From: a virus | Taxonomy: Duplodnaviria > Heunggongvirae > Uroviricota > Caudoviricetes | DNA: 64,000 nt | Direction: 5' to 3' (one strand) | IMG/VR virus record: IMGVR_UViG_3300043399_001190 | Part shown: in pieces, positions 10,866-42,596 of the stretch | How positions within the stretch are numbered: the first letter of the stretch is position 1 | Layout: each line of letters begins with the position of its first letter | Program-made: the position numbers and the translations under genes | Notes under the pieces: model-generated | Told to the model about the DNA's origin: nothing | Databases searched by the model: none | The model's input: only the letters and a program-made list of their open reading frames with translations

Positions 10866-10866
10866 T

Positions 10867-11148
10867 ATGCCATTAGACCTAAACATAGAAAAAATTCTCA
10901 AAGAATTTGATGAAGACGACGACTTCGGTTTTTCTGCCGTTTCTGAAGTTGAGTACAATAAAGTTATTAATGAATCTGCCGAAACGGCAGAAGCATACAA
11001 AGCTAAATTGGCTGAAGTTGAAAAACTTATCATACCCTTCTTAACCAAACTTTTGAAGACAGCCGACAAAGAATATATATACTGGCCAAATAGAAAACCA
11101 GCAATCGAAAAACAAATTGAAAAGATATTGAAACTGACTCGGAGTTAA
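10867..11148 (+). CDS. small acidic hypothetical protein
   Basis: ORF track, tight spacing. Confidence 0.4.
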   Translation: MPLDLNIEKILKEFDEDDDFGFSAVSEVEYNKVINESAETAEAYKAKLAEVEKLIIPFLTKLLKTADKEYIYWPNRKPAIEKQIEKILKLTRS

Positions 11149-11149
11149 T

Positions 11150-11881: not shown

Positions 11882-12744
11882 TTATAGGTGCATATACAAA
11901 TTATGAATTCAATTTATTGAAACCTTGGATTTATTCCATCAAACAAACCGACTTCGATGGTGATATTGTTTTAATTGCCATTGATCCAGACGAAAACACC
12001 GTAAAACAAATAGAAGATGCTGGTGTAATAGTAGTTAAGGCTAGAAACGAACAAAAAATGAGAATTCATATGTTGCGTTTCTTGTACATATACAATTATC
12101 TAAAACACACAGATTATCGTTTCGTTATCACGACAGATGTTCGTGATGTTATCTTTCAGAACAATCCGACAAAATATCTTTACACAACATTTGGTAGCAA
12201 ATCAAAAGGTATCATTGCACAATCTGAGGCAATTAAAATTAAAGATGAAGCCTGGAATCGTGATAATATCATTAAAAATTTTGGAGAATATTTTTACAAT
12301 GATGTAAAGGACAATGAAGTATATAATGTTGGTCTGCTTGCTGGAACTGCCGAATATGTTAAAGATTTATGTTTTGCTTTGTTTCAAATGTCAAGCAATC
12401 GTCCAGATTGGGTCGCCGACCAGGCAGCATACAATATGTTATTGAGTTATAAACCCTGGTCCGATATTGCAATAAAACTAAAGCTTGAAGATGGTTGGGC
12501 TTTGAATGCACACGTAACAAACAAGCCAGATCAAATGCAAGAATTTGGTCCTTATTTGTTGGAAGAAAGACCGTATATGAAAGATGGTGTGGTTTTTAAT
12601 GCACAAGGAAAACCATTTACGATTGTACACCAGTATGATAGGGTTCCAGAGTGGACTATTTATTATATGGAAAAATTTCAATTTTCTATCAAATCGGACA
12701 CCAATACCGGCAGTTCACCTAAATACTTCATCTACAATACATAA
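11866..12744 (+). CDS. hypothetical protein of the glycan-modification cluster
   Basis: ORF track; overlaps neighbours. Confidence 0.4.
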   Translation: MAKDLIIGAYTNYEFNLLKPWIYSIKQTDFDGDIVLIAIDPDENTVKQIEDAGVIVVKARNEQKMRIHMLRFLYIYNYLKHTDYRFVITTDVRDVIFQNNPTKYLYTTFGSKSKGIIAQSEAIKIKDEAWNRDNIIKNFGEYFYNDVKDNEVYNVGLLAGTAEYVKDLCFALFQMSSNRPDWVADQAAYNMLLSYKPWSDIAIKLKLEDGWALNAHVTNKPDQMQEFGPYLLEERPYMKDGVVFNAQGKPFTIVHQYDRVPEWTIYYMEKFQFSIKSDTNTGSSPKYFIYNT

Positions 12745-12762
12745 TTTTATAAATATGAGGCT

Positions 12763-13599
12763 TTGAATATGAGCAAAATTTCTATCGTAACCGCTTTCTA
12801 TGACATTGGCCGAAGTGATTGGTCGATGGATGTACACAAAAATGGTGGTCCACTTCCACACTATTTACAAAGATCGACAGAAAAATATATCGAGCATTTC
12901 AAACGAATGTGCGAGATTGATACTGAAATCATTGTTTACACATCCTCTGATCTAGCATCAAAACTCGGTGAGATTTCACCGAATGTTAAAGTTGTCGAAT
13001 ATGACTACTTTAATATACATAAAGAACTCCGTGACAAGATTGAAGAAATACAAACATCACCTGAGTTCATAAAAAGAATAAATCCATATCAAGTAAGAAA
13101 TCCCGAATACTGGTCAAAAGACTATGTTGGTGTAACATCACTAAAGGCTTTCTATGTGAGTGATGCTTTTGAGCGTGGGTTAATCACCAATGAATGGGCT
13201 GCCTGGGTTGACTTTGGTTATTGTCGTGATGCAGAACATATTCCAAAAACCAAAAAATGGGAATATGATTTCACACCAGGTAAAATGCACTTCTTTAACT
13301 ATCGTGATCCGGACATTAATAAGAAACTTGAACAAATCCAGCTTGCGGTATTAAACAATATCGTCTATATCATCGGCGGTGTTTTTGTTGGTGAAAAAAC
13401 ACAATGGAAGATGCTTGAAGATAGTATGAGCAAATCAATGGAATTTTTAATGTACAACAAGCTCGTTGATGATGACCAAGGTCTTCTATTGAGTTCATAT
13501 TTTATGAATCCAGAAATGTATGAATTGCATAAAATGCCATTAGTTGCTCCAATTGAAGATGTTAGATCCATAATTAAGAAGTTTAATAATCATGAATAA
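12763..13599 (+). CDS. putative LPS/polysaccharide biosynthesis protein (HtrL/YibB-like N-terminus IVTAFYDIGR)
   Basis: motif recall only; TATAAATA-like sequence tttataaata at 12745-12755 just upstream. Confidence 0.35.
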   Translation: MNMSKISIVTAFYDIGRSDWSMDVHKNGGPLPHYLQRSTEKYIEHFKRMCEIDTEIIVYTSSDLASKLGEISPNVKVVEYDYFNIHKELRDKIEEIQTSPEFIKRINPYQVRNPEYWSKDYVGVTSLKAFYVSDAFERGLITNEWAAWVDFGYCRDAEHIPKTKKWEYDFTPGKMHFFNYRDPDINKKLEQIQLAVLNNIVYIIGGVFVGEKTQWKMLEDSMSKSMEFLMYNKLVDDDQGLLLSSYFMNPEMYELHKMPLVAPIEDVRSIIKKFNNHE

Positions 13600-14977
13600 A
13601 TTAGTAATTTTTGACCTTGATGGTGTATTAATTGATTCTAGAGAAATACACTATGATGCATTAAATGATGCTCTGAGAAAAGTGGGTGAACAATATGTCA
13701 TTTCTAGAGAAGAACATTTAAGCTTATACGATGGTTTAAATACGACTAGAAAACTTAAGATGTTGACCGAAAAAAAAGGTTTACCTGTTTCTGAATATGA
13801 TAAGATTTGGTCTGACAAGCAAGAAGCAACATTCACTATTGTTAGAGGTTTCAATAAAGAATATTGGTTACAAACCATGTTCAGAAAAATAAAAGCAAGA
13901 GGATATAAAATTGCTGTTGCTTCGAATTCAATTCGTGAGACAGTAAAATTGTCTCTTATAAGTATTGGGCTAATTGAAGAAGTTGATTATTTTGTTAGCA
14001 ATGAGGATGTAAGTAGAGCAAAGCCATATCCCGAAATGTATTGGAAATGCATGACAGCTTTGAATGCTTTACCCAAAAATACTATCATTGTCGAAGATAG
14101 TCACATCGGCCGACAAGGTGCTTTAGATTCTGGCGCACATTTATTACCAGTTGAAAACGCACAAGAAGTTAACAGTGAAAATATGATGCAAAGGATTTAT
14201 GACCTTATGAATACAATTGAAGGAACAAGTAAAAAATCTCTACCTTGGAGAGATAACAAACTAAACGTTTTGATTCCAATGGCTGGCGCAGGCTCACGTT
14301 TTTCTACTGCCGGTTATACTTTTCCAAAACCACTTATTGAAGTTCGCGGTAAACCAATGATTCAAGTTGTTGTCGAAAACTTGAATATTGAAGCTAACTA
14401 CATTTTCTTAGTACAAAAAGAACACTATGAAAAATATAACTTGAAGTATCTTCTGAATCTAATTGCTCCAAATTGTAAGATTGTGCAAGTAGATGGTCTA
14501 ACAGAAGGTGCAGCTTGTACGACTTTATTGGCAAAAGAATATATTGATAATGATGCGCCTCTAGTCATGGCAAATTCGGATCAATACGTTGATTGGAATT
14601 CTAATGAATGCATGTACGCTTTCTCAGCAGATTCTATTGATGGTGGCATTCTAACATTTGAAGCAACGCATCCGAAATGGTCTTATGCAAAACTTGATGA
14701 GAATGGATTTGTTTCTGAAGTTGCAGAGAAGAAAGTTATTTCCAATAATGCAACAGTTGGCATTTATTACTGGCGTCACGGTTCAGACTATGTTAAATAT
14801 GCTGAACAGATGATTAAAAAAGATATTCGCGTTAACAATGAATTTTATGTTTGTCCCGTTTTCAATGAAGCGATTGGTGACGGTAAAAAAATTCGTGTTA
14901 AAAATGTTGAAGCTATGTGGGGTATTGGAACCCCAGAAGATTTAAATTATTTTTTGAGCAATCACAAGGAAGATTAA
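13592..14977 (+). CDS. bifunctional HAD-family phosphatase/phosphomutase (N) + sugar-phosphate nucleotidyltransferase (C)
   Basis: HAD motif I IFDLDGVLIDS at N-term; nucleotidyltransferase signature LIPMAGAGSRF in C-half. Confidence 0.55.
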   Translation: MNKLVIFDLDGVLIDSREIHYDALNDALRKVGEQYVISREEHLSLYDGLNTTRKLKMLTEKKGLPVSEYDKIWSDKQEATFTIVRGFNKEYWLQTMFRKIKARGYKIAVASNSIRETVKLSLISIGLIEEVDYFVSNEDVSRAKPYPEMYWKCMTALNALPKNTIIVEDSHIGRQGALDSGAHLLPVENAQEVNSENMMQRIYDLMNTIEGTSKKSLPWRDNKLNVLIPMAGAGSRFSTAGYTFPKPLIEVRGKPMIQVVVENLNIEANYIFLVQKEHYEKYNLKYLLNLIAPNCKIVQVDGLTEGAACTTLLAKEYIDNDAPLVMANSDQYVDWNSNECMYAFSADSIDGGILTFEATHPKWSYAKLDENGFVSEVAEKKVISNNATVGIYYWRHGSDYVKYAEQMIKKDIRVNNEFYVCPVFNEAIGDGKKIRVKNVEAMWGIGTPEDLNYFLSNHKED

Positions 14978-14978
14978 A

Positions 14979-15593
14979 ATGAAATATTTTTTTGATGTTG
15001 GAGCACACTGGGGACAAGACTCTCTACATATTGCAAAAGATGACCCAGATACTACAGTTATTGCTTTTGAGCCAACGCCGGAGTTAGCTTCTAGATTGAG
15101 GTGGATTGCCAAAGAAGGGAAATTTGAAAGCCGCTATAAAGTATATCAGCAAGCAATTTCAGATTTTGATGGTGAATCAGATTTTCATCTTGTTGTCGGT
15201 GATACCGGTTCGGCCTCTCTTAACGAATTCAATGACAATCTACATCAAACTTGGCCAGGTAGAACAGACTTTGTTGTTAGAGGCTCAATCAAAGTAAATG
15301 TATACAGACTCGAAACGTGGCTGCCTTTGTTTGCACCGGAAGTAACAGAAATTGAACATTTACATATTGATGCTCAAGGCTCCGATTTAGCAGTTTTAAG
15401 AGGTCTAGGTTCCAAACTCTCGATGGTGAAATCTGGTGTCGTTGAAGTGCCACAAGCTGCTGCTTTACGACTGTATAAGGGTCAACACACGAAAGAAGAA
15501 ACTCTCCAATTTTTGGAAGAGAATGGTTTCGAAGTTACAAATGTGACTTCACAGGTTAATGAGGATAATATTTTCTTTCAGAGAAAAAAATGA
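14979..15593 (+). CDS. FkbM-family SAM-dependent methyltransferase-like
   Basis: N-term FFDVGAHWGQDS resembles FkbM motif (IDVGAN.G); 204 aa. Confidence 0.5.
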   Translation: MKYFFDVGAHWGQDSLHIAKDDPDTTVIAFEPTPELASRLRWIAKEGKFESRYKVYQQAISDFDGESDFHLVVGDTGSASLNEFNDNLHQTWPGRTDFVVRGSIKVNVYRLETWLPLFAPEVTEIEHLHIDAQGSDLAVLRGLGSKLSMVKSGVVEVPQAAALRLYKGQHTKEETLQFLEENGFEVTNVTSQVNEDNIFFQRKK

Positions 15594-16303
15594 AAGTTGC
15601 ATTGTTATTAACAGGTCATATGCGGTGTTGGAATCAAGTATTTCCAAATACCAAAAACCATATCATGGACAAATATAATCCAGATGTTTTCATCGAGACA
15701 TGGGATTCTGAAGCATACTGGGATCCACATTCTTCAAAGGGTATAACCGAAGGTGGTCCCAATTTGAATGTTGATGCGATTCAACGTACTTACAAACCAG
15801 TATACATGAATGTGGAAAAATACGAAGAATTTGAAGAAAATTTTTCTCAACGAGCTAAGGAATTTACTAATTTCTATCATGTACCGAAAAACCAAATTTC
15901 CATGTGGTTTAAAGTAGGTCGTGGTATGCTCGCTGTTGAAGAGCATATGATGTTGACAGGCAAAACATATGATGTTATAATTCGTATGCGTCCAGATTTG
16001 TACTTCAATGAACCTTTACCAGATTTTGATCCGAACAAATTTTATACCTTGGGATTTAGAAATCATATGGGTCAAGGAACCTCCGATATGATTCAAGTTG
16101 GAAACTTCTTTACCATGAGCTTATTCTGTAAAGTTCTTTATCATTTACCACATCTTTATAAGGAAACCGGTCTTTTGTGTCCGCATGTTATTTCAGAACA
16201 CTTCATTAAAAGATTGGGATTACCCTGGCAAGAATTTATGGTTAACAAAACAATAATGCACACACCTCTAGGCGAATATAAACACAAGAGTCTGTACCAA
16301 TGA
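15590..16303 (+). CDS. hypothetical protein, paralogue of 16751..17458
   Basis: MKVALLLTGHMR / KYNPDVFIETWD aligns with MRLALCLSGQPR / KYTVDVFFHTWV. Confidence 0.45.
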   Translation: MKVALLLTGHMRCWNQVFPNTKNHIMDKYNPDVFIETWDSEAYWDPHSSKGITEGGPNLNVDAIQRTYKPVYMNVEKYEEFEENFSQRAKEFTNFYHVPKNQISMWFKVGRGMLAVEEHMMLTGKTYDVIIRMRPDLYFNEPLPDFDPNKFYTLGFRNHMGQGTSDMIQVGNFFTMSLFCKVLYHLPHLYKETGLLCPHVISEHFIKRLGLPWQEFMVNKTIMHTPLGEYKHKSLYQ

Positions 16304-16794
16304 TACTAATTGCACACAGAGGTCTTTTCAGTGGGCCTGATATCGAAAAAGAGAATACACCAAAACAAATCGAACTTGCATTGGAAAAAAATTACGATTG
16401 TGAAGTTGATGTTTGGTACGTTAAAAATGAATGGTGGCTAGGTCATGACAAACCACAATATAAAGTTGATTGGAACTTTATTGGAAAGGAAGGTTTGTGG
16501 CTGCACTGTAAGAATCTAGATGCTTTATATGAACTGACTTACAGCCCATTCAAGTACACTTATTTCTGGCATCAGGAAGACGATTTTACTTTAACTTCGA
16601 ATCATTACATCTGGACTTATCCTGGAAAATCTCTAACCAGAAATTCAATTTCTGTGCAACCAGAAAGAACGGAAGAAATGTGGACATGGACCAAAAGTTG
16701 TTCACTAGGTATAGCTGGTGTTTGTACAAAATATGTTGAAAGATTTGTGAATGAGATTAGCACTTTGTCTATCGGGACAACCGAGAAGCTATAA
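16300..16794 (+). CDS. glycerophosphodiester phosphodiesterase (GDPD)-like domain protein, short
   Basis: IAHRG...ENT...E.D.W..K...LGHD matches GDPD signature. Confidence 0.5.
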   Translation: MILIAHRGLFSGPDIEKENTPKQIELALEKNYDCEVDVWYVKNEWWLGHDKPQYKVDWNFIGKEGLWLHCKNLDALYELTYSPFKYTYFWHQEDDFTLTSNHYIWTYPGKSLTRNSISVQPERTEEMWTWTKSCSLGIAGVCTKYVERFVNEISTLSIGTTEKL

Positions 16795-17458
16795 AAAAGC
16801 TTTTGAATTTATAAGTAGAAATTTACTTGAAAAATATACTGTTGACGTTTTCTTTCATACGTGGGTGAACGTACCGGAGAATAGTTATATTTTTGACGAA
16901 CTGCAACAACTTTATAGACCTGTTATTGCTTCTTATGACTATTCTTTACCGTCAAATGTAAATTCACACATGTTGGTTCCAAATGGCTCACATCCAGCCA
17001 ATTTTTGCACATCAATGTTTTACTCTATTAATGTTGCAAATGAATATAGGGTCAAGCATGAAGTTTTTGGTGCATTTCGTTATGATTTTGTTATACGAAG
17101 TAGATTTGATTTTGCGCTAAACAAAGTGATTGATTTTGGTTCTCTGGAAACAAATAAACTCTATGTTCCAAAAGATGTTGAAGGACCGGCACTTTTAAAT
17201 GACCAGTTTGCCATAGCTGATTCTGATACGATGAATGTCTATGCGTCAACGTTCTTATATCTGCAAAAATTGTATAATTCTGGAGTTCCACTTTGTGGGC
17301 ATGAAATGTTGCAGGAACAACTGACAAGAAATTCTACGCCAGTTGAACGTATCGACCTTGACCATCCTTTCGTTGATGGTGATTTTAATAGAGGAAGACA
17401 CTCTCTGATACGTGAAGATATGTCAAAATGGGTCGATATTAAAATTTGGGGCTACTAA
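16751..17458 (+). CDS. hypothetical protein, paralogue of 15590..16303
   Basis: see paralogue; overlaps upstream gene by 44 nt. Confidence 0.45.
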   Translation: MRLALCLSGQPRSYKKAFEFISRNLLEKYTVDVFFHTWVNVPENSYIFDELQQLYRPVIASYDYSLPSNVNSHMLVPNGSHPANFCTSMFYSINVANEYRVKHEVFGAFRYDFVIRSRFDFALNKVIDFGSLETNKLYVPKDVEGPALLNDQFAIADSDTMNVYASTFLYLQKLYNSGVPLCGHEMLQEQLTRNSTPVERIDLDHPFVDGDFNRGRHSLIREDMSKWVDIKIWGY

Positions 17459-17494
17459 ATAATCCATAGTCACAGTGTACTATCAGAGGATTTA

Positions 17495-18688
17495 ATGAAA
17501 CAATTTTTGCAGTATTTGCAGGAAGAACTGGACCCGGAAGAGGGTGCCAGTAGGCAAATAAAACACCTAACACATATCGAAGATCGTATTTTGCAAACCG
17601 GAGACAAAGGTGCAAAACACGCAATTTCGTCATTGGAAACTGCGGCTGAACACATCAGTCAAGGTAAAAAGTCATCGCAACTGACAACAAAATATGACGG
17701 TTCACCAGCAATCGTTTACGGTCATCACCCAGAAAACGGTAAGTTTTTTGTTGCTTCCAAGTCAGCTTTCAACAAAACACCAAAAATCAACTATACGCCT
17801 GCCGATATAGAAAAAAACCATGGCCATGCTCCTGGCTTGGTTGAGAAGTTGAAAGCAGCACTGAAACATTTACCGAAAGTTGCACCAGAAAAAGGTGTTT
17901 ACCAGGGTGATATGATGTTCTCGGATGTAGACAAGAAACACTCAAAAGATGCCGTTTCTTTCAGACCAAATCCCTCTGGTATAACTTACACTGCACACGG
18001 TCAACATGCAACAAAAGCTAAAAAGGCCAAAATTGGTGTAGTAACTCATTTATCATATGAAGGCAAAAATTCTGCTAGTTTAAATGCATCGCACGAAGTT
18101 GACCATGAAAATTTCGGGCAACATTCTGATGTATTCTCGGTTGACCCAAGAATGGACACTTCTAAAGTACATTTCGGTCCAAAAGACAGAGCAGAATTCA
18201 AAAAACACATTGCCGCAGCTAGATCAGTTCACGATACGCACGGTGACGACATGTATGCAGGAACAAAAGCACATCAAGGTATAGGTGGTCATTTAGAGAC
18301 TTACATCAATCACACTGTTAGGAGTGATGAAGAACCTAATCATGAAAATTTTAAAAAGTGGTTGGAAAATAAGAAAAATAAAGAAATTGAAAAATTGAAG
18401 GTTGAAAAAAATAAAAAGTCCAAACAGCAAGAGTTATCAGCGGAATTAGATAAGATTGAAAGAAATAAAAAGCACTATAATAATGTTTTCAAAATGCATG
18501 GTCATTTACAAAAAGCAAAAAATGTGCTGATTAATGTTCTAAATCAACATCAAGAATTTCAACATGAACACGCTGGTGAACCAGCAAATCCTGAAGGATA
18601 CGTTTTCCATCACGGAAAAGAATCGGATAAATTTGTAAACAGAAGCGAATTCTCAAAAAGAAATTTTGCCGGAATAAGAAACATATGA
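17495..18688 (+). CDS. putative covalent nucleotidyltransferase (KxDG motif, ligase-like) with T4 CTS-like N-terminus
   Basis: N-term MKQFLQYLQE; TTKYDGSPAIVYG (KxDG), later PEGYVFHHGK; assignment by motif only. Confidence 0.45.
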   Translation: MKQFLQYLQEELDPEEGASRQIKHLTHIEDRILQTGDKGAKHAISSLETAAEHISQGKKSSQLTTKYDGSPAIVYGHHPENGKFFVASKSAFNKTPKINYTPADIEKNHGHAPGLVEKLKAALKHLPKVAPEKGVYQGDMMFSDVDKKHSKDAVSFRPNPSGITYTAHGQHATKAKKAKIGVVTHLSYEGKNSASLNASHEVDHENFGQHSDVFSVDPRMDTSKVHFGPKDRAEFKKHIAAARSVHDTHGDDMYAGTKAHQGIGGHLETYINHTVRSDEEPNHENFKKWLENKKNKEIEKLKVEKNKKSKQQELSAELDKIERNKKHYNNVFKMHGHLQKAKNVLINVLNQHQEFQHEHAGEPANPEGYVFHHGKESDKFVNRSEFSKRNFAGIRNI

Positions 18689-20586
18689 AAAAATTTCTAG
18701 AAAAAGTGGAAGACGATTTGCAAACCAAAAGCCCAGTCGTAATGGCTTTTGGTAGAATGAATCCGCCCACAGTTGGGCATGAGAAACTTGTAAACAGAGT
18801 TAAAGAAATAGCTAAAGACTATAATGCTCCACACCATGTTATAATTTCACATTCTGTTGATGCAAACAAAAATCCACTTGATGCTAAAGCAAAACTGAAA
18901 CACGCCCAGAGATTTTTTCCTGGCACAAATTTATCAACTTCCAGTAAAGAACTTCCAACTTTCTTGCAACACGCTGCAAAGTTAAATGCAGCAGGACATG
19001 ACCATTTAATTATGGTTGCAGGCTCGGATAGAATTCCAGAATATGAAAAGAAGTTGCATGATTATAATGGACCAAAAGATAAAAATCCAAAAGCACTTTT
19101 CAATTTCAAAAAAATTGAGTTGAAATCTGCGGGGCATCGTGATCCTGACTCTGAAGGTGTTGAAGGTATGTCTGCCTCAAAAATGAGGGAACATGCAAAA
19201 AATAATGATTTTCATAGCTTCAAGATGGGTGTACCTGAGCATGTGCCCGAGAAACACGCCAGAGAACTTTTCAGAGATGTTAGAAAAGGTATGGGTATAC
19301 ATGAAGATTCTAGTCATGGTTTGTTCAAAGCACTCTTCATTTGTGGTGGTCCCGGTTCCGGTAAAGATATCATCATACGTGAAGCAATTGCTGAAAGAAA
19401 CGCGGTCGAACTGAATTCAACTCTTGCAATTAATATTCTCAACGACAAACATAAGTTACATGAACAGTCTAAAGATTTCAGAAGAGAAGCTATTCGCAAA
19501 AGAATGCCGTTGATTGTAAATGGCACAACGAATGAACAATTCAATATTATTGAAATTAAAAATGAGTTGGAAGAACTCGGTTACGAAACAATGATGATTT
19601 TCGTAAACACGACAAACGAAGCTTCGAAAAAAAGAAACAATGGACATGAAAGAGTTATGTCCGAATCTGTTCGTCAAGAAAGATGGGATAAGACTCAACT
19701 TGTAGCTGAAAAAATGAATCAAATTTTTACAAAATATCTGGAATTTGATAACTCTTTGGACTTGAATGAAGCTACAATTTTCGAAATGTCGGAGAAAGAA
19801 GAAGATATAGCAATCATTTATGAAATGTCCAACTGGTTTTTCGACACTCAAGTAAACAACGAAATTGCAGAAACTTGGTTAGAAAAAAATAGAAAAAAGG
19901 ATATAAACCAAGTATTCGAATCCTTTATTAAAAATCCTTTGAAAGGTAGAAAAAATGTTTCAGAAATTAAAGCAAATCGCAAGACTATTTTTGCCGAAAG
20001 TGGATGCAAATGCAAAACATCCTTTGGATATTCAGAAGTATCAGGTAGAGGAAAACAAAAGCTCACAGACAACATCTGCCCAAGTTGCGAGCTTACTAGA
20101 AAAGCCGGTAGAGAAGACGATGTTAGAGACGGAGACACCAAATCAAACATTAGTTACACATTCAGAACCTACCACGAAGGAACAACCCCAACCATCCAAG
20201 TCAACCCAGAGCCCAAAGAAACGCGCTTCCAGCAAGACAACGACAAGCAAAAAAACAGGAAACAAAAAGCCGCACCAAGCCAAAGCGGCAAAGTAATGAA
20301 CACTGCTGGTGTTAGCCCAGAATATGATACACGCGCTCAAGGTTCTGTTTACCCAATGTCTGGTCTTGGAAATGTTACATATAGAGAACAGAAAGAGAAT
20401 AAATATACCAGTACCGCAGAGGTAACACGCAAATCGTTTGTAAAATTCAGAAAAGAATCTATTGATTCTCCAAGTGTCGAAATGGGAGTTACTGGCGGAG
20501 AATATGGTCCTTCAAACAAAGAACCGTTGGAAACTCCAGGCGATAAAGTATTGAATCAAAATTCAAATAAAAAGAAGAAAAAATGA
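18685..20586 (+). CDS. HxGH nucleotidyltransferase (NMNAT/cytidylyltransferase-like) fused to P-loop domain (GGPGSGK) and long K/T-rich low-complexity tail; CTS-like N-terminus
   Basis: MKKFLEKVED N-term; FGRMNPPTVGHEKL; LFICGGPGSGKDIII; tail rich in K,T,S,N. Confidence 0.5.
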   Translation: MKKFLEKVEDDLQTKSPVVMAFGRMNPPTVGHEKLVNRVKEIAKDYNAPHHVIISHSVDANKNPLDAKAKLKHAQRFFPGTNLSTSSKELPTFLQHAAKLNAAGHDHLIMVAGSDRIPEYEKKLHDYNGPKDKNPKALFNFKKIELKSAGHRDPDSEGVEGMSASKMREHAKNNDFHSFKMGVPEHVPEKHARELFRDVRKGMGIHEDSSHGLFKALFICGGPGSGKDIIIREAIAERNAVELNSTLAINILNDKHKLHEQSKDFRREAIRKRMPLIVNGTTNEQFNIIEIKNELEELGYETMMIFVNTTNEASKKRNNGHERVMSESVRQERWDKTQLVAEKMNQIFTKYLEFDNSLDLNEATIFEMSEKEEDIAIIYEMSNWFFDTQVNNEIAETWLEKNRKKDINQVFESFIKNPLKGRKNVSEIKANRKTIFAESGCKCKTSFGYSEVSGRGKQKLTDNICPSCELTRKAGREDDVRDGDTKSNISYTFRTYHEGTTPTIQVNPEPKETRFQQDNDKQKNRKQKAAPSQSGKVMNTAGVSPEYDTRAQGSVYPMSGLGNVTYREQKENKYTSTAEVTRKSFVKFRKESIDSPSVEMGVTGGEYGPSNKEPLETPGDKVLNQNSNKKKKK

Positions 20587-21056
20587 AAACGTTTCTACAA
20601 TATTCAAAAGAGCGAGACAAGGAAGAGCTTGAAAGACAAATGCGCCATCATTTCGAAATGGCTCAAAGAAGTCTTGACACGGCTCAAGAATTGCAAAGTA
20701 AAGGTGACATGGATGGTTTTCACACATTTATGGCAAAGCACCACCATTTTCAAACTCAAGGTGAGTATTTAAAAACTCACTTGAATGAGGCTTCTCCAGC
20801 GTGGCAAAGAAAAGCTGGTAAAAGCCCAACTGGCGGTCTGAATCGCAAAGGTATTGCTTCTTATCGTCGTGAAAATCCTGGTTCAAAACTGTCAATGGCA
20901 GTGACAACACCTCCTTCAAAGTTGAAGCCAGGAAGCAAAGCTGCAAAAAGAAGAAAATCCTTCTGTGCAAGAATGGGTGGTATGCCTGGTCCAATGAAGG
21001 ATGAAAAGGGTCGCCCAACTAGAAAAGCTTTATCGTTACGTAAATGGAACTGCTAA
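20583..21056 (+). CDS. basic protein with CTS-like N-terminus (candidate internal head protein)
   Basis: MKTFLQYSKE N-term; K/R-rich C-terminus. Confidence 0.45.
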   Translation: MKTFLQYSKERDKEELERQMRHHFEMAQRSLDTAQELQSKGDMDGFHTFMAKHHHFQTQGEYLKTHLNEASPAWQRKAGKSPTGGLNRKGIASYRRENPGSKLSMAVTTPPSKLKPGSKAAKRRKSFCARMGGMPGPMKDEKGRPTRKALSLRKWNC

Positions 21057-21071
21057 TAAACGGAGAAAAAA

Positions 21072-21863
21072 ATGTTCAATAATATTTTCAAGAAAAATGA
21101 TCCTGTTGCTGATATGATCGCTCAAATTGCTGAAGCCGATTACAAAGCAAAAATGGAAGAGCTTAAAGGTCAACAGCATAAGATTGACAAAAACAAGAAC
21201 AACAAGATTGATGCACACGACTTTGCAATTCTTCGTGGCGAAAAGAAAGCCATGAAAAAAGAAGAAGTTGATAGTGTTGAAGAAGCTAACAATCCATTTG
21301 ATGTTAAGAACTACAAGAGTCAATTGAAATCAAAACCAGGTGAAAAAGCTGGCTTTGACTCCAAGAAAACATCTACTGGTACTGTTTATTCAAGAAAGCC
21401 AGTCAAAGATGAGCCAATGAAAAAGGAAGAAATTGACCCGAACAAGACAACAGTTGACACGTTAAATGGTCGTGAAAAAGATTCTAAGAATCCTTTTCTT
21501 TCGAAGAAAGTGTTCATGGATGTACCAGATAATGTAAAAGAAGAAACTGAACAAATTGATGAGTTGAAAAAAACGACTGTCAAATCTTATCTAAAGAAAA
21601 AAGTTGATACTCTCCCAGGAAAAGATCCAAAGAAAGACCAGGAAAGCATGATGAGAGCGCATCATCGTGTTACTGGTGTTAAACCAACTTCTGAAGAAGT
21701 TGAAAAAATCGACGAGCGTGAACTTACTAAAGGTGAAACCGCAGAAAAAGAACGTATCGTTAAAGGAATGAAAAAGAGTTTTGCTGGTTTCAAACAGCGT
21801 TACGGTGATAAAGCAAAATCAGTTATGTATGCTACCGCTACAAAGGCAGCTAAAAAGGATTGA
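21072..21863 (+). CDS. K/E-rich protein with TEQIDELKK motif (candidate scaffold/internal protein)
   Basis: shares (V/T)EQIDE(L) motif with next gene. Confidence 0.5.
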   Translation: MFNNIFKKNDPVADMIAQIAEADYKAKMEELKGQQHKIDKNKNNKIDAHDFAILRGEKKAMKKEEVDSVEEANNPFDVKNYKSQLKSKPGEKAGFDSKKTSTGTVYSRKPVKDEPMKKEEIDPNKTTVDTLNGREKDSKNPFLSKKVFMDVPDNVKEETEQIDELKKTTVKSYLKKKVDTLPGKDPKKDQESMMRAHHRVTGVKPTSEEVEKIDERELTKGETAEKERIVKGMKKSFAGFKQRYGDKAKSVMYATATKAAKKD

Positions 21864-23722
21864 TAATGAGTAAAGCAGGCAATCTCATTAAAAACATGGT
21901 GAAAGCGAAAAAAGAATCTGTCATGGGTAAATTGGCCAACGGTGACGATCCGATGGAACCATGGTCGAAAAGATTCGATGCTCCAATCAAAGAAGAAGAA
22001 TTGAACGAAGATACCTGGTTATATCGTTACATACGTTCTCTTGGTTGGGACCCGGAACACATGACATTTGCAGAACGTTCAAAATACGCTCGTTCGAATG
22101 CATTTAAACACTGGAAACAGTCACACATGAATCGTAGACCGGGTGAAACTGCCACAATGGAGAAACCAGTTCAGGAAGAAATTCTCGACGAAGCTGGAAC
22201 TGGCTTGCTCATGTCATATATTAAATCCAAGGGTCTTGATCCAAGAACAATGGACGGAAATCAAAAAGCCGCATATTCTAAATCCAGTGAATTTAGAATG
22301 TTTAAAATGCGTCATATGAAAGAAGTTTCGGGGATGGGTGAACGTGGTGATGATTGGAATGAAGAAAAGAAACCTGTGAAAGAGGCTGTCGATAAAGCAG
22401 ACACTGTTACAGTAGACATTCCATTGATGATTCGTCTTCTTGAATATGCTCGTGAAGATGCCAAAACCGATATGGATCTACACAAAGTTGTGGAAAATTT
22501 AATCAATATGCGTTCAGAAGGAACACTTTCAATGGATCATTACGATTCTATCGTAAATGTTAAGTCCATGAAAGAAGAGGTTGAACAAATTGATGAACTT
22601 GATAAAGCGACACTGACCAGCTATGCAACGAAAGCGAGAGCAGATGCTGAAAAGCTAACTAAGCAAGGTGATGCTGCATCAAAAAGAAGTTCCACGAAAT
22701 CTTTACAGACTGCTTATGACAAATATAAAAAAGCAGCAAAACGCACGATGGGTGCCGGTAGTGCAGAGTCGAAAGCTCGTCTAAAAGAAGACGAGCAATT
22801 AGACGAACTAAAAAAGATTCCTGATAATATGGATGCTGACGACCATATTACCCGTGAAGATTTGCGTCAGTGGTTTAGTAAAACACACCCAGAGGGTGAT
22901 TGGAAAAGAATCAATTCAAAAGGTGAAGTTGCAGGTCCTTGTGCCAGAGAGCCTGGTGAACCAAAACCTAAGTGCATGTCAAAAGAGAAACGCGCACAAT
23001 TGAGCAAGAGTGAACGTGCGGCCGCAGTTGCAGCAAAACGTAAACATGATCCTGTTGCTGATAGACCAGGTAAAGGCGGTAAGCCTATTAACGTTTCAAA
23101 TTACGGTAAAGGTAAACTGAGTGAAGAAGGTGTCGATGAAGCATGTTGGGATACACACAAACAAGAGGGAATGAAAAAGAAGGGCGATAGAATGGTCCCA
23201 AATTGTGTTCCTAAAAATGAATCTGTCGAACAAATTGATGAAAAAAACAAACCAACAAATCCAGGTTTGTGGTCTAGAGCAAAAGCAATGGCTCGTTCCA
23301 AGTTTGATGTTTACCCATCAGCTTATGCAAATGGTTGGGCAGCAAAATGGTACAAATCCAAAGGCGGCGGATGGAAGTCGGTGAAAGAAGATATTGTTCA
23401 AGAAGGTATTTACGGTATCGAGGATTCACCTTTGTCTGCGACAAATTCTGTTAAAGCTATGGAATCTTCTAACAGAAAAAAAGAAATGTCGAAATCTGCT
23501 AGAATGATTAAATCAATCTACAAAAAGAAAAATGTCAAAGAGACAATGTACGATTGGGAAAAGACTGAAAAGGGTGGTAAAGTTGTTGATGAGCCAACCG
23601 CAAAAGTTATTATGAAAGGTGGTACAACTATGACTGGAAAACCACGAGACACTATCGAAATAGAGCCTGTCTTAAAAACAAAACTTAACAGTCCGGCTGG
23701 TATGAAATCTAGCTTGCAATAA
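21860..23722 (+). CDS. 620-aa K/E-rich protein with internal duplications and three (V)EQIDE motifs (candidate scaffold/internal protein)
   Basis: repeats YIRSLGWDPEHMT..HWKQSHM / YIKSKGLDPRTMD..MFKMRHM; EEVEQIDELDK, ESVEQIDEKNK. Confidence 0.5.
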   Translation: MIMSKAGNLIKNMVKAKKESVMGKLANGDDPMEPWSKRFDAPIKEEELNEDTWLYRYIRSLGWDPEHMTFAERSKYARSNAFKHWKQSHMNRRPGETATMEKPVQEEILDEAGTGLLMSYIKSKGLDPRTMDGNQKAAYSKSSEFRMFKMRHMKEVSGMGERGDDWNEEKKPVKEAVDKADTVTVDIPLMIRLLEYAREDAKTDMDLHKVVENLINMRSEGTLSMDHYDSIVNVKSMKEEVEQIDELDKATLTSYATKARADAEKLTKQGDAASKRSSTKSLQTAYDKYKKAAKRTMGAGSAESKARLKEDEQLDELKKIPDNMDADDHITREDLRQWFSKTHPEGDWKRINSKGEVAGPCAREPGEPKPKCMSKEKRAQLSKSERAAAVAAKRKHDPVADRPGKGGKPINVSNYGKGKLSEEGVDEACWDTHKQEGMKKKGDRMVPNCVPKNESVEQIDEKNKPTNPGLWSRAKAMARSKFDVYPSAYANGWAAKWYKSKGGGWKSVKEDIVQEGIYGIEDSPLSATNSVKAMESSNRKKEMSKSARMIKSIYKKKNVKETMYDWEKTEKGGKVVDEPTAKVIMKGGTTMTGKPRDTIEIEPVLKTKLNSPAGMKSSLQ

Positions 23723-23754
23723 ATAACAGTATATTCTTTTAAGGAGAAACAGTA

Positions 23755-24309
23755 ATGTCAACAGCTTTTTGGACAATGACGGACGCTAACACTGGTGTTC
23801 CGCTTTTCGCACCAACAGCACTAAAACTTGCACCAACCCGTGCAAACGCAAATGTAATCTATGCTAACTCAAATACCGCACAAGCTTTTAGTGCAGCCGT
23901 TGGTGTTTGGGGTGTAGATACACAGGAAGCAACAAACACCCAAGTTACGCCAGCCGCAACAAAAATGGCTCACGCTGGTTGGGTTCAAAGAACCGCAGGT
24001 ATGGGTGGTATTGTTACAATTTCTGCTAACACCAATGCTTATAGCCCAGACGGTAATATTTTTGTTACTTTCGCAAATGGTGGTACAGGTGCAACACCTG
24101 CAAACGCTACAGTTGTTACCAATGGTGCAAAACTAATCACAGGTATCACTTTGAATGAACCAGGTTTGTATCTAACAACACCAACCGCCACAGTTGTAAA
24201 TAGTAACGTTGCTATCACAATCACTATGGGTGGTCGTGCTGGTAGAACACAATACGAAACTCTTGTTGCAACTGGTAGCATCACCGGCAACGGCGCAGTT
24301 ATTATCTAA
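23755..24309 (+). CDS. highly codon-biased Ala/Thr/Gly/Asn-rich protein (likely abundant virion/late protein)
   Basis: strong RBS AAGGAGAAACAGTAATG; GC and codon use shifted (ggt/gca/act); AATAAATA (late-promoter-like) at ~23721; hairpin after stop. Confidence 0.5.
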   Translation: MSTAFWTMTDANTGVPLFAPTALKLAPTRANANVIYANSNTAQAFSAAVGVWGVDTQEATNTQVTPAATKMAHAGWVQRTAGMGGIVTISANTNAYSPDGNIFVTFANGGTGATPANATVVTNGAKLITGITLNEPGLYLTTPTATVVNSNVAITITMGGRAGRTQYETLVATGSITGNGAVII

Positions 24310-24313
24310 TAAA

Positions 24314-24332
24314 AGGGCGGATTTTCCGCCCT
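24314..24332 (+). terminator. hairpin AGGGCGG-atttt-CCGCCCT directly after stop of 23755..24309
   Basis: 7-bp GC-rich stem; weak U-tract on plus strand (TATCATTAT). Confidence 0.45.
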
Positions 24333-24338
24333 ATCATT

Positions 24339-24725
24339 ATGTTTGATGATTTGACTGAAGACAATTTTATTATGTATGCTATGAAGGCATACTATTCGCC
24401 ACACTGTATAATGAGTGAATTTGAGAGCGACCTAAAAAGAACAAAATATCTAAAAAGACTTTTCAGGCGCTACAAAATAACGAAAGCATTAAAAGAAAGA
24501 TTAATCTTAAACCACATAATACTTCTTTATAATGTTTTTGGAGTCGAGGCGGCAACAAGAATATTGTTCTTCAGAATTGATGAAAAAGATTATGATGTTC
24601 TTAAAACTTTTTTGATTTATCTAAATTATATGCCAGATAAAATAAAAGGTATAGGTGGAAAAGATATTTTATCTTCTGATATACTAATTGATATGCATGT
24701 TGCAGATATACTAAGAAAAATATGA
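24339..24725 (+). CDS. hypothetical protein
   Basis: ORF track. Confidence 0.4.
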   Translation: MFDDLTEDNFIMYAMKAYYSPHCIMSEFESDLKRTKYLKRLFRRYKITKALKERLILNHIILLYNVFGVEAATRILFFRIDEKDYDVLKTFLIYLNYMPDKIKGIGGKDILSSDILIDMHVADILRKI

Positions 24726-24907
24726 AATCATTCAAACAATTTATTTTAGAAGATGGTATGGTGGGTTCTTCCGGACCAACAAATGTTGTAAGCACTGGTG
24801 CGATTGCTGGAACGGGGGAAAAAGGTGGTGAACCAGGTGTGCGTTTAAAACGTAAGCGTGCTGTTATAGTTCAACCAATGCAAAAACGAAAACCACCAAA
24901 GATGTAA
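24722..24907 (+). CDS. small basic protein with CTS-like N-terminus (IPI-like internal protein candidate)
   Basis: MKSFKQFILED N-term; Gly-rich middle, KRKRAV..KRKPPKM basic tail. Confidence 0.4.
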   Translation: MKSFKQFILEDGMVGSSGPTNVVSTGAIAGTGEKGGEPGVRLKRKRAVIVQPMQKRKPPKM

Positions 24908-24908: not shown

Positions 24909-25331
24909 ATGTGGATATTACAGTGGTTACCTGACTGGTTTTTTTATGCTCTATTTTTCGTGGGCTTGTTGGGAATCGCTACTACATTTTTATTGAGATT
25001 CATACCTTTCTTTTATTTGTATAAGAATACAATTCAAGCTTTTTCTTTGTTATTGATTGTTATTGGTGTTTATATGTCAGGAGCAATCAGAGAAAAAGCT
25101 GCTTGGGAAATGAGAGTGAAAGAAATGGAGATAAAGCTTGCTGAAGCTCAAGCAGAATCTTCGAAAGTTAATACTGAGATAATTGAAAAAACTATAACAA
25201 AAACACAAATCGTTAAAGAGAGAGGTAACGATATTGTTAAATATATTGATCGTGAAGTGGTGAAATATGATAATGAATGTAAGATACCAAAAGAGTTCAT
25301 TGAAGCACATAACAAAGCGACAACACGATGA
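24909..25331 (+). CDS. membrane protein with N-terminal TM segments and periplasmic coiled coil (i-spanin-like)
   Basis: hydrophobic FYALFFVGLLGIATTFLL and AFSLLLIVIGVYMSGAI, then charged helical region; start overlaps stop of upstream gene, coupled to next gene (ATGA). Confidence 0.4.
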   Translation: MWILQWLPDWFFYALFFVGLLGIATTFLLRFIPFFYLYKNTIQAFSLLLIVIGVYMSGAIREKAAWEMRVKEMEIKLAEAQAESSKVNTEIIEKTITKTQIVKERGNDIVKYIDREVVKYDNECKIPKEFIEAHNKATTR

Positions 25332-25594
25332 AATATTTGTTGATTATTCTTACATTATTAACGGTGGGTTGTTCTACCACCGTGCCGGTCAAAGCAAAAT
25401 TTCCTGACCCTCCAGGAAAATTGATGACCGAAAGATGCCCACAATTAAAAACGTTGGCTGATGATTCGAAGTTAAGTGATGTTTCTAAAACAATCACGAT
25501 GAATTACACCGAATATTATATCTGTGCTGTCAAAGTGGATTCCTGGATCGAATGGTATGACAGTCAGAAAAAAATATTCGAAAGTGTAAAATAA
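25328..25594 (+). CDS. small lipoprotein (o-spanin-like)
   Basis: MKYLLIILTLLTVGC lipobox-like signal; 88 aa; overlaps neighbours. Confidence 0.45.
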   Translation: MKYLLIILTLLTVGCSTTVPVKAKFPDPPGKLMTERCPQLKTLADDSKLSDVSKTITMNYTEYYICAVKVDSWIEWYDSQKKIFESVK

Positions 25595-26217
25595 TGGAAT
25601 TAACAAAAGAACAACTAAAACAATTACTTCCAAAGAATCCATATATTGATTACTGGCACAATGCATTGTCGCAACTATTGCCAGATTATGAAATCAATAC
25701 ACCACAGAGAATAGCTGCATTTGTTGCACAATGTTCACATGAGTCTGGTGGATTCATGGTACTTAAAGAGAACTTGAACTATCGCTGGCAATCTTTGAGA
25801 AAGTTATTTCCAAAATACTTCCCAACAGATGAATTGGCACAAAAATATGCATCAATGCCAAACAAACAGGAAGCAATAGCCAATAGAATTTATGCAAATA
25901 GAATGGGAAATGGTCCAGAAGAATCTGGCGATGGTTACAGATATTGTGGTCGCGGTCTTATTCAACTAACAGGTCGTCAAAACTATACCTGGTTTGCAGC
26001 ATCACTTGAAATTACACCTGAAGAAGCAACCGAATATCTTGGAACATTTGAAGGTGCAGCACAATCTGCATGTTGGTTTTGGGAAACAAATAAATTAAAT
26101 CAATGGGCAGATAAAGGTGATATTGTTACACTAACGAAAAGAATCAATGGTGGAACAATAGGTCTAGAAGATCGTATTAAACATTACGAACATGCTCTAC
26201 ACGTTTTAGGTGTATAA
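25594..26217 (+). CDS. endolysin, glycoside hydrolase family 19 (chitinase-like)
   Basis: RIAAFVAQCSHESGGF ... YCGRGLIQLTGRQNY motifs typical of GH19 lysins. Confidence 0.75.
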   Translation: MELTKEQLKQLLPKNPYIDYWHNALSQLLPDYEINTPQRIAAFVAQCSHESGGFMVLKENLNYRWQSLRKLFPKYFPTDELAQKYASMPNKQEAIANRIYANRMGNGPEESGDGYRYCGRGLIQLTGRQNYTWFAASLEITPEEATEYLGTFEGAAQSACWFWETNKLNQWADKGDIVTLTKRINGGTIGLEDRIKHYEHALHVLGV

Positions 26218-26503
26218 AATGAATGATAAAAAATTATTCATAGCACTACTAGTACTCATTTCTTTACCAATTGCATTGGCTTTCTTTGGTAAAGATCGCT
26301 TTAGATATCCATGTCAAGATCCTGAAAATTGGGATAAAGATTTCTGTAAAATGCCTTTGTGCGATGTAACACGTACATGCCCGGAACATATTTTCAAAGG
26401 TCAACGTGATCCAAGATTGGGTCCACCAGAAACAAGAAATCAACCAATCGGTCAAGCTCAGTCTTGTCAAGCACAACCACAAGGAGGTAGCTGTGGAAAA
26501 TAA
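26210..26503 (+). CDS. small Cys-rich protein with N-terminal signal-anchor
   Basis: LFIALLVLISLPIALAFFG hydrophobic N-term; 8 Cys. Confidence 0.4.
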   Translation: MYKMNDKKLFIALLVLISLPIALAFFGKDRFRYPCQDPENWDKDFCKMPLCDVTRTCPEHIFKGQRDPRLGPPETRNQPIGQAQSCQAQPQGGSCGK

Positions 26504-26507
26504 TTTT

Positions 26508-26933
26508 ATGTATACAGAAGAACAATTGATGGCGCGATTGAAATTTTTCATTGGCGTCTGCTTGGCACTGACATTAACAGGTATCGTTTTTGTTGTACTT
26601 TATTCAATTATATTTGTTACGCAGCCTCTGAATGCAATAAGCCCAATCGATCAGAAATTTTTTGAGTTGATTGTTCCTATTGCAACATTTTTAACAGGCA
26701 CACTTTCCGGCATCATGTTAGCGGGAAATGATAAAGATTTGAGAGCAAAAGCTTTAGAGTCGGCGACAAAACCTCCGCCACCGCCTGCGCCAGTCCCAGT
26801 GCAACCAGTAAACACAATGAAGCGTGAGCCAGTTTTCACTGAAACGTTTGCACCAACAAATACTCAACCACAAATTGTTACCGGTTTCGGTGGAAAACCT
26901 GCGCCGGCTCCAGCATTCCAACCGGAAATTTAA
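26508..26933 (+). CDS. TM protein with Pro-rich segment (PPPPAPVPVQP)
   Basis: track ORF 26406..26933; start moved to MYTEEQ after upstream stop; one TM FFIGVCLALTLTGIVFVVLY. Confidence 0.4.
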   Translation: MYTEEQLMARLKFFIGVCLALTLTGIVFVVLYSIIFVTQPLNAISPIDQKFFELIVPIATFLTGTLSGIMLAGNDKDLRAKALESATKPPPPPAPVPVQPVNTMKREPVFTETFAPTNTQPQIVTGFGGKPAPAPAFQPEI

Positions 26934-42265: not shown

Positions 42266-42440
42266 ATTTCGAAACTCCTCTGGAACCTCCTGGAAAAAAT
42301 TTTGAGGATGTGCTAGATAGAAAACTCGAAAATGTGCTGGGGCCTCCAGAAAATAAATTTTAGAAAAAAAGAGTTTGGGCCATAGGCGAAAATTACTTAC
42401 ATAGCGTTATTTTTAGCACACTGCTGCCATATTTTTAGAG

Positions 42441-42585: not shown

Positions 42586-42596
42586 TTGTTTACTCC

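Follow-up and report, generated by a model that had tools for sequence, protein, structure and literature searches.

Genes with T4-like capsid-targeting leaders in an uncultured aquatic T4-like myovirus: a probable cassette of head-packaged proteins, enzymes included

Between gp41 and gp61 of an uncultured T4-like myovirus (IMG/VR record IMGVR_UViG_3300043399_001190) lies a block of eight co-directional genes on the + strand, at positions 17495-24907 of a 64,000-nucleotide stretch of DNA which we call the window, and four of these genes start with one and the same N-terminal decapeptide pattern. The window represents the replication and metabolism region of the phage and holds only replication, metabolism and lysis genes, among them those for the gp43 polymerase, UvsX, gp41, gp61, ThyX, NrdA/B, a gp47-like nuclease, a peptidase and CobS; identity of its polymerase to those of cultured cyanomyoviruses reaches about 50% at most. 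Close relatives are found on more than 590 IMG/VR contigs, some of them 166-177 kb long, and the gp41-block-gp61 arrangement recurs in Syn9, S-SM1, S-PM2, Syn1, HTVC008M and the OM43 phage Melnitz. The block and the elements ahead of it are listed below, with the decapeptides called leaders and the E-x-[ILV]-D-E motifs called junctions.

17455..17461, + strand: late-promoter-like box CTAAATA, 34 nt upstream of 17495, overlapping the stop of the upstream gene
17467..17482, + strand: hairpin TAGT-CACAGTGT-ACTA, between the box and the ribosome-binding site
17495..18688, + strand: cargo 1, 397 amino acids (aa), DUF6267 (Pfam, E 1e-93)
17495..17524, + strand: leader 1, MKQFLQYLQE, N-terminus of the 397-aa protein
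18685..20586, + strand: cargo 2, 633 aa, PHROG 'cytidyltransferase' at the N-terminus (E 2e-61)
18685..18714, + strand: leader 2, MKKFLEKVED, N-terminus of the 633-aa protein
20583..21056, + strand: cargo 3, 157 aa, helical module and C-terminal DUF6321 basic domain (Pfam, E 5e-23)
20583..20612, + strand: leader 3, MKTFLQYSKE, N-terminus of the 157-aa protein
21072..21863, + strand: lysine/glutamate (K/E)-rich modular protein, 263 aa, untagged, with two E-x-I-D-E junctions at nt 21549-21563 and 21702-21716
21866..23722, + strand: modular polyprotein-like protein, 618 aa, with five E-x-[ILV]-D-E junctions of 15 nt each, at nt 22178, 22583, 22793, 23126 and 23228
23755..24309, + strand: Gly/Thr/Ala-rich protein, 184 aa, placed by synteny only, with a AATAAATA box at 23718-23725
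24339..24725, + strand: DUF7207 protein, untagged (Pfam, E 2e-39), a neighbour in every related block
24722..24907, + strand: leader 4 and a 51-aa Gly-rich basic peptide, 61 aa in all, at the gene position of GC426 of S-SM1 and gp160 of S-CREM2
24722-24751, + strand: leader 4, MKSFKQFILE, N-terminus of the 61-aa protein

The four leaders have the common start M-K-x-F-x-x-[Y/F/K]-x-x-[E/D]. No other open reading frame (ORF) of the window begins in this way, and a preliminary description of this DNA, made from the letters alone, was right about the four genes and their N-termini. For the pattern K.F..[FYK][LIVS].[ED] at residue 2, 0.03 matches are expected by chance among the 113 ORFs (P ~1e-8), a value that is inflated because the pattern was built after the fact from the same four sequences; a pattern fixed beforehand from T4, MK.[FY]..[FY][ILV].E, is matched by two of the four (17495 and 24722). 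Codon usage differs among the four leader 5' ends, and both the similarity and the selection behind it therefore lie at the level of the peptide.

The leaders had also been likened to the capsid targeting sequence (CTS) of the T4 internal proteins (IPs), and there is indeed agreement at the targeting positions and in part at the processing positions: the T4 record reads MKTYQEFIAE for IPII and IPIII and MKTFKEF... for IPI. Amber-suppressor analysis of the IPIII CTS, as reviewed for Black's work, assigned targeting to residues 4 and 7 and processing to residues 8 and 10, and an Asp at position 10 blocked cleavage with targeting kept (PMC9026906). As to the targeting positions, all four leaders have F4, and three have an aromatic residue at position 7 (Y7 in 17495 and 20583, F7 in 24722); as to the processing positions, L8 is combined with E10 in 17495 and I8 with E10 in 24722. 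Leader 4, with F4, F7, I8 and E10, is the best fit to the T4 CTS among the four. The leader is a short amphipathic helix in the predicted model, and leader 1 lies outside the fold of its cargo, residues 1-23 of 17495 being disordered (pLDDT < 50 in an AlphaFold model with an overall pLDDT of 87). Like the T4 IPs, the tagged and the K/E-rich proteins of the block are all net basic. Permissive leader patterns also caught a HAD hydrolase (MNKLVIFDLD), T4 lysozyme and PTOX; because of such false positives, prediction should rely on the strict form alone, in which position 4 is F/Y, position 7 aromatic or L, position 8 aliphatic and position 10 E.

Orthologues reveal which residues of the leader are under constraint. 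The DUF6267 protein begins with M-[LKI]-x-F-x-x-[FY]-[LI]-x-E-Q across 114 orthologues, where positions 4, 7, 8 and 10 are nearly fixed and positions 2, 3, 5, 6 and 9 are free to vary; as the conserved positions are the functional positions of T4, this supports a CTS-like nature of the leader. The leader of the 18685 family is conserved more evenly (M-K-x-F-L-[EQ]-K-[LIV]-E-[EAD] in 113 orthologues, ending mostly in [LIV]8-E9-[E/A]10), with positions 3 and 8 varying most. In two diverged relatives, at loci L007 and L009, no gene of the block is without a leader. L009 has two genes in place of the 157-aa one, each with a leader of its own (MKSFLQYSKE and MLRFKQYINE), the L007 counterpart of 20583 starts with MKTFKIFLEE, and a 97-aa gene in these relatives consists of the leader and DUF6321 only. 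Counterparts of leader 4 in relatives read MKKFKQFLED and similar.

Once the leader is removed, the leader-bearing ORFs of 82 related loci fall into three unrelated groups, formed by DUF6267 (82 ORFs), the nucleotidyltransferase-kinase (58 ORFs) and heterogeneous small modules (61 ORFs). When the N-termini of 150 cluster representatives of the DUF6267 family were sorted, 49 had the canonical leader at residues 1-10 and 15 a shifted copy, and 24 had no leader, their fold beginning within 15 residues. The linker from leader to fold measures 4-16 residues in DUF6267, and the leader is retained down to 33-63% identity of the cargo. As judged from these comparisons, the leader is a detachable module, and the same DUF6267 enzyme family exists with and without it. 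The Methylophilales phage Melnitz (MZ577097; L181:4290-14165) has the same block behind a perfect copy of the T4 late promoter, TATAAATA; four or five of its block genes carry the leader (MQGFKTFLSE, MKKFSELTSE, MKKFSEIIEA, MKNFKNHIAE and a shifted copy on the DUF6267 gene). Melnitz, a cultured phage, is a ready experimental system, and together with HTVC008M it is the nearest cultured carrier of the 18685 protein (34-44% identity).

In many Kyanoviridae the leader is followed by another conserved module, some 35 aa long, '...A.K.LGL.Y.GFGRY.D..G.(V/I)TH...', which occurs on otherwise unrelated cargo and is absent from the proteins of the window. Its carriers are Syn9 gp184 (L001:6806-7954), S-SM1_190 (L014:28256-29419) and gp12/gp14 of S-CREM2 (L003), as well as several DUF6267 representatives (P0342, P0380, P0383 and P0387). 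This GFGRY module may be a second part of a packaging signal or a common adaptor domain.

Are proteins with such a leader found in virions? All 174,876 bases of S-CREM2 were scanned and set against the published virion proteome, in which 52 of 219 genes were detected (PMC10665884). Six annotated genes start with the leader, and five of the six are in the proteome (hypergeometric P = 0.003): gp6 (S-adenosylmethionine (SAM) hydrolase, MKDFDSFLEE), gp13 (unnamed, MKDLHSFLTE), gp14 (kinase, VKRFDAFLTE), gp136 (unnamed, MQTFSMFFSE) and gp154 (cytidylyltransferase, MKNFSSFLTE). The remaining leader-start gene, gp175 (unnamed, 55 aa), was undetected. The five detected genes lie far apart, some of them on the other strand. 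It is for these very proteins that the authors of that study had no explanation, suggesting encapsidation or contamination. In the 170 of 174 kb scanned for S-SM1, the strict leader occurs on one gene only, SSM1_190 for the cytidylyltransferase (MKKFSAFLNE); its product, T4-GC190, gave 25 peptide counts in the virion data of Sullivan 2010 (Table S8). Five more products of the S-SM1 block were virion-detected (GC1453, GC1454, GC1455, GC425 and GC426; Sullivan 2010), of which GC1455 has the N-terminus MLSFKELQEKK. The DUF6267 gene of S-SM1, Syn9, S-PM2 and Syn1 lacks the leader, and the untagged DUF6267 cluster, T4-GC71, is absent from the virion table of S-SM1, S-PM2 and Syn9.

The order of the window block is syntenic with the cyanophage block whose products appear in purified virions according to published mass spectrometry, and several of its proteins have virion-detected homologues. 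The nucleotidyltransferase domain of 18685 is homologous to S-SM1 GC190 and S-CREM2 gp154 (33-37% identity), the DUF6321 domain of 20583 to S-CREM2 gp137, and residues 306-509 of the 618-aa protein to S-CREM2 gp160, all detected in virions; the C-terminal module of 21072 matches the N-terminus of the S-SM1 virion protein GC119 (E 1e-8).

S-SM1 GC426 (L014:32805-33353), S-CREM2 gp160 (L004:28342-29235) and Syn9 gp190 (L001:11500-12024) were seen to share a further property. An N-terminal segment of each copies the part of the N-arm of the capsid protein that follows directly on the maturation cleavage site (local alignment z 8.5-15.7), which is probably why RefSeq labels them 'major head protein'. 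The 61-aa protein of the window was considered as a homologue of GC426 and gp160 and rejected; its similarity is not significant (z ~1), and only the gene position is common to them.

What, then, are the tagged proteins? The best structural matches of the 17495 model are RNA ligases, with values in the match table of 8.9 for the N. gruberi RNA ligase, 8.4 for REL1, 8.1 for T4 Rnl2, 7.4 for a tRNA ligase and 7.0 for T4 Rnl1. Motif I, KxDG, is present as K66-Y67-D68-G69 and invariant in 43 aligned sequences, including the position of the catalytic lysine; E367-G-Y-V and K379, both located after a 120-residue helical insert, are likewise invariant. We treat 17495 as a putative, divergent covalent nucleotidyltransferase of the RNA/DNA-ligase type. 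The 18685 protein comprises a predicted HIGH-motif nucleotidyltransferase (residues ~15-210), a predicted P-loop kinase (~212-400) and a basic tail (421-633); in its model, residues 1-420 form two folded domains, and residues 421-633 are disordered yet contain conserved motifs. The N-terminal domain finds NadD/NMNAT in Foldseek (E 8e-5, TM 0.6), has a nearly invariant P-P-T-V-G-H (27-32) as well as S-A-S-K-M-R (163-168), and scores 13.5 bits with Pfam CTP_transf_like, under the cut-off of 21. For the kinase domain, the top Foldseek match is the C. thermocellum polynucleotide kinase (E 3e-5), closely followed by adenylate kinases (1e-4); its Walker A motif G-G-P-G-S-G-K-D (221-228) is invariant, and AAA_33 of Pfam scores 19.3 bits, under the cut-off of 27, beside weak Zeta-toxin hits. 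By its model, 18685 joins a NadD/NMNAT-like domain to a P-loop kinase that resembles polynucleotide kinases. The earlier guesses for both enzymes, 'ligase-like' for 17495 and 'NMNAT/kinase-like' for 18685, were thus upheld by structure prediction and fold search.

The d138 protein of S-PM2 (L013:6998-8773) has the DUF6267 ligase-like and cytidylyltransferase domains fused within 591 aa, without a leader, and HTVC008M encodes the kinase as a separate protein; from these two arrangements the three activities appear linked. The fusion, as a feature of gene architecture, suggests that the ligase-like and cytidylyltransferase enzymes act in one pathway. Two readings of their role are possible, RNA healing and sealing or a NadR-like salvage of nicotinamide adenine dinucleotide (NAD). 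In T4, RNA healing and sealing are done by Pnkp and Rnl1.

The small cargo and the K/E-rich proteins are of a different build. The modules of cargo 3 recombine freely among relatives. The motifs TEQIDELKK, VEQIDELDK and VEQIDEKNK, which had been noted in the two K/E-rich proteins, are present, and further copies read VEKIDEREL and DEQLDELKK, or more loosely EILDEAG and EGVDEAC. E.[ILV]DE occurs seven times in these two proteins versus 0.08 times in composition shuffles (~90-fold), and only two other occurrences are found in all + strand ORFs of at least 60 aa. The larger of the two proteins had been described as a 620-aa product starting at 21860; the protein stands, but its start most likely moves from TTG 21860 to ATG 21866 (MSKAG...), 2 nt past the preceding stop, giving 618 aa, and the relatives all begin with MSK.... 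Its proposed internal duplication of about 45 aa is real (local alignment z = 14.5) and corresponds to one module of the junction-bounded type in tandem, at nt 21998-22141 and 22178-22321.

When the proteins were aligned with those of two relatives, whole modules were seen to be inserted, deleted or duplicated between E-x-[ILV]-D-E motifs, and one relative has eight junction copies in a single protein. The IMG/VR relatives have the same small modules in many orders behind the leader, separated by KEE-x-E-x-[IV]-D-E; among those shuffled are a helical module, DUF6321, a Cys-rich 'RCWPGHKPVPGK', 'EDLRKWF...CAREPGE' and a Gly-rich basic tail. L009:14616-16283, the relative of 21866-23722, has a HicA_toxin module (PF07927) exactly between two E-x-[IL]-D-E junctions, where the window protein has its 'ATLTSYATKARA...' module, so a toxin-type RNase may be delivered within the polyprotein of that relative. 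The junction pattern is as expected of linkers in a protease-cut polyprotein, and [ILV]-D-E would fit the (L/I)-x-E rule of the T4 prohead protease gp21.

The two remaining genes of the block are untagged. The 23755 protein, for which no significant similarity was found, occupies the place of the cyanophage 'S-layer domain/virion structural protein', and its membership in the system is uncertain. The S-CREM2 homologue of the DUF7207 protein, gp159, was undetected in virions (PMC10665884).

Late expression of the cassette may be read from the sequence upstream of the first gene. Of 79 related loci, 69 have TAAATA at 39-55 nt ahead of the ATG, and a sister clade as well as Melnitz have a perfect TATAAATA at the position of the box. 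As exact copies of TATAAATA are not enriched in the window (2 versus 4.4 expected), the promoter argument rests on the position-conserved box in relatives. The hairpin that follows the box has a sister-clade version, GCAAC-CAAAGTGT-GTTGC, in which the 8-nt loop is conserved and three of four stem pairs are changed on both sides; the same succession of box and hairpin is found in L015-L094 and L181, upstream of DUF6267 or of the first block gene. The hairpin matches no Rfam family and may, from this covariation-like pattern, be a regulatory element in the 5' untranslated region of the cargo operon.

A gp21-type protease and its specificity can be followed through the cultured relatives. Each of the 16 cyanophages in Sullivan 2010 has a gp21 gene, as do S-SM1 and S-CREM2, and these phages have the head-assembly genes gp20-gp23. 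T4 gp21 and S-CREM2 gp143 are 40% identical. The propeptide of T4 gp23 consists of 65 residues (PMC5694885), and its site FLTE|A (after residue 65) aligns with LLTE|A of the S-CREM2 capsid protein; the specificity of the prohead protease is thus plausibly conserved.

Combining these lines, we consider it likely that the block, from the promoter-like box onwards (17455-24907), forms a cassette that is expressed late and encodes head-internal proteins of a T4-like myovirus, which are packaged and probably ejected. That T4 CTS-like leaders mark head-packaged proteins, enzymes included, was the central claim of the preliminary description, and it is supported by the conserved positions, by the association of leader and virion detection in S-CREM2 and S-SM1, by the virion-detected homologues and by the enzyme folds. 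In a mechanism drawn by analogy to T4, the leader M-[K/L]-x-F-x-x-[F/Y]-[L/I/V]-x-E would bind the scaffolding core during prohead assembly and so bring its fusion partner, whichever protein that is, into the head. A gp21-type prohead protease would then remove the leader, cutting after the Glu of [LIV]-x-E, and would act as well on the E-x-[ILV]-D-E junctions within the two K/E-rich proteins, yielding small, basic modules that remain with the DNA. As tagged cargo the cassette has the ligase-like enzyme, the NadD/NMNAT-kinase fusion, the DUF6321 basic protein and the 51-aa basic peptide. By the same analogy, late transcription would precede these steps, and ejection into the host, where the enzymes would act, would follow them; a function of the enzyme cargo in counter-defence is speculation.

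Several observations weigh against this interpretation. The leader of 18685 has K7, conserved in its orthologues, as an exception to the aromatic residue, and combines V8 and E9 with D10, the residue that stops processing in T4; the leader of 20583 has S8 next to its E10. The box of the window, CTAAATA, departs from the late-promoter consensus. Neither gp21 nor gp22 lies within the window, and a gp21 profile built from a three-sequence alignment listed at least 80 loci, mostly of cyanophages, none of those listed being on the long contigs that carry the block; no gp21 was placed on a contig of the same lineage, and we infer the protease for this phage from the relatives. The two K/E-rich proteins show no detectable homology to T4 gp22, gp67, gp68 or the IPs: in profile comparisons (hhalign) of 21072 and 21866 with these proteins and with the S-CREM2 scaffold, probabilities did not exceed 0.7%. 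HTVC008M, a cultured relative, has no clear leaders on the homologous genes. The tagged cytidylyltransferase of Syn9 was undetected in an older, less sensitive virion analysis of 2007. Several virion proteins without a leader exist, so the tag is not the sole route into the virion; S-SCSM2R, taken as a second proteome, gave no information on the association of leader and virion detection, its two odd virion enzymes being without leader and no leader gene occurring in the 50 kb examined. Finally, by the S-CREM2 authors' own caveat, mass spectrometry of virions purified in caesium chloride (CsCl) can pick up abundant contaminants.

This last point leads to the alternative that survives best, namely that the leader directs its cargo to the tail, the baseplate, a chaperone (phage Hsp20) or the membrane, or that the tagged proteins are abundant late proteins which co-purify. 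Mass spectrometry is blind to the place of a protein within the particle, contamination was left open by the S-CREM2 authors, and a short amphipathic helix such as the leader would suit other destinations as well. However, the T4 CTS is matched position for position, at the cleavage residues in part, these phages have the T4 head genes gp20-gp23 together with a conserved capsid cleavage site, and contaminants would not be expected to have a decapeptide in common; we regard another destination as unlikely. Unlikelier still is that the block encodes ordinary cytoplasmic enzymes of nucleic-acid or nucleotide metabolism alongside disordered proteins, with the leaders a relic of duplication or recombination between neighbours. 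Such a view would accommodate the location of the block in the replication module beside nucleotide-metabolism genes, the existence of untagged enzyme versions, and the S-PM2 fusion with the single metabolic pathway it suggests, but it sits poorly with tagged proteins that are unrelated families once the leader is removed, with a leader that persists where cargo identity has dropped to 33-63%, and with homologues detected in virions. That the shared N-terminus merely serves translation or expression, through an A/T-rich unstructured 5' end or translational coupling rather than sorting, is highly improbable: three of the four leader genes do overlap the preceding gene by ATGA within one operon, and MK starts are common (K2 in 17 of 113 ORFs), but the codons of the leaders differ, the conservation of residues 4, 7, 8 and 10 with the others free speaks for selection on the protein, and the leader genes of S-CREM2 track virion detection although scattered and found also on the other strand.

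How does a cassette of head-packaged proteins relate to known systems? With T4 IPI, IPII and IPIII it shares the pattern of the N-terminal decapeptide (aromatic residues at 4 and 7, aliphatic at 8, Glu at 10), and with the polymorphic IPs of T-even phages it shares unrelated, fast-evolving, basic mature parts in a T4-like background. Agreement with the T4 CTS extends to the targeting positions and, in part, to the processing positions. Unlike in T4, the mature parts are non-homologous to IPs, large enzymes are among the cargo, as are modular multi-domain proteins with a proposed polyprotein format, the block belongs to the replication module (gp41 to gp61), the host is aquatic and uncultured, position 2 is often L/I in relatives, and one leader has K7 and E9-D10. 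For enzymes as cargo, T4 Alt is a precedent, being an ADP-ribosyltransferase that resides in the head, is processed by gp21, is injected and acts at the start of infection; the enzyme classes here differ, being ligase-like, NadD-like and kinase-like.

Also close are the virion enzymes of cyanophages (T4-GC190 of S-SM1; gp154, gp14 and gp6 of S-CREM2), with a homologous nucleotidyltransferase, the same leader and the same syntenic block; here, in contrast, a kinase and a disordered tail of 213 aa are joined to the nucleotidyltransferase, and the ligase-like neighbour bears a leader as well. The virion association of cyanophage cytidylyltransferases and kinases has already been published (PMC3037559, PMC10665884), these papers reporting detection only, with no mention of a targeting sequence or of processing. 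A literature search of incomplete coverage yielded no paper tying the virion enzymes of cyanophages or pelagiphages to a capsid targeting sequence, and nothing relevant on DUF6267, DUF6321 or DUF7207, nor did it yield anything on when the genes of Syn9 are transcribed. The ejection proteins of the giant phages phiKZ and SPN3US and the Dar proteins of P1 are likewise head-internal cargo loaded via N-terminal regions, and giant-phage propeptides are cleaved after the Glu of a short x-x-E motif (PMC5694885). Giant-phage propeptides, however, are mostly longer than 100 residues with A/S-x-E motifs, the loading hierarchy of P1 differs, and neither system has a sequence relationship to the one described here. 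On the side of the enzymes, the block resembles RNA repair systems (T4 Rnl1/Rnl2 with Pnkp, bacterial Pnkp/Hen1), cargo 1 best matching RNA ligases and the kinase of cargo 2 the Pnkp kinase of C. thermocellum.

Few viruses on Earth are as abundant as the T4-like phages of cyanobacteria, SAR11 and OM43 together with their freshwater relatives. In several proteomics papers, 'non-structural' enzymes were listed for their virions (cytidylyltransferase, kinases, SAM hydrolase), with the authors undecided between cargo and contaminant; a tag that matches the T4 CTS offers a mechanism for their presence and a sequence-only predictor of injected proteins in metagenomes, and its gain or loss on the same enzyme family would account for the recruitment of new cargo. 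Candidate enzymes for counter-defence in the first minute of infection come into view with it, as does a possible format in which a protease cuts small effectors out of a polyprotein. A still broader proposal would be that T4 capsid targeting is conserved across aquatic T4-like phages as a general plug-in delivery system, bringing in both an enzyme kit ahead of phage gene expression and protease-cut effector polyproteins; taken jointly, these elements make a tentative proposal that we find doubtful as a whole. If true, any gene gaining the decapeptide would become injected cargo, an RNA-repair or nucleotide-salvage kit would act before the phage genes are expressed, for instance against tRNA-cleaving or NAD-depleting defences, and polyproteins cut at E-x-I-D-E would yield interchangeable effector modules, in some relatives with a HicA-type RNase toxin.

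Three further regions of the window deserve mention. Inserted between gp41 and the cargo block is a sugar-related cluster (10116-17458) with glycosyltransferase family 2, HtrL_YibB-like, HAD + NTP_transferase fusion, Methyltransf_21 and DUF7796-like genes; cyanophages carry MazG and 2-oxoglutarate (2OG) oxygenases at this place. Directly after the block follows a lysis cassette (24909-26933):

24909: spanin-like protein
25328: lipoprotein, o-spanin candidate MKYLLIILTLLTVGC
25594: GH19-type endolysin
26210 and 26406: small membrane proteins

The third region, 42001-46000, has a G+C content of 0.47 against about 0.36 elsewhere in the window and a GC skew that is negative or flat; the 371-aa ORF at 43944-45059 has no PHROG match, and the region may be a recently acquired island.

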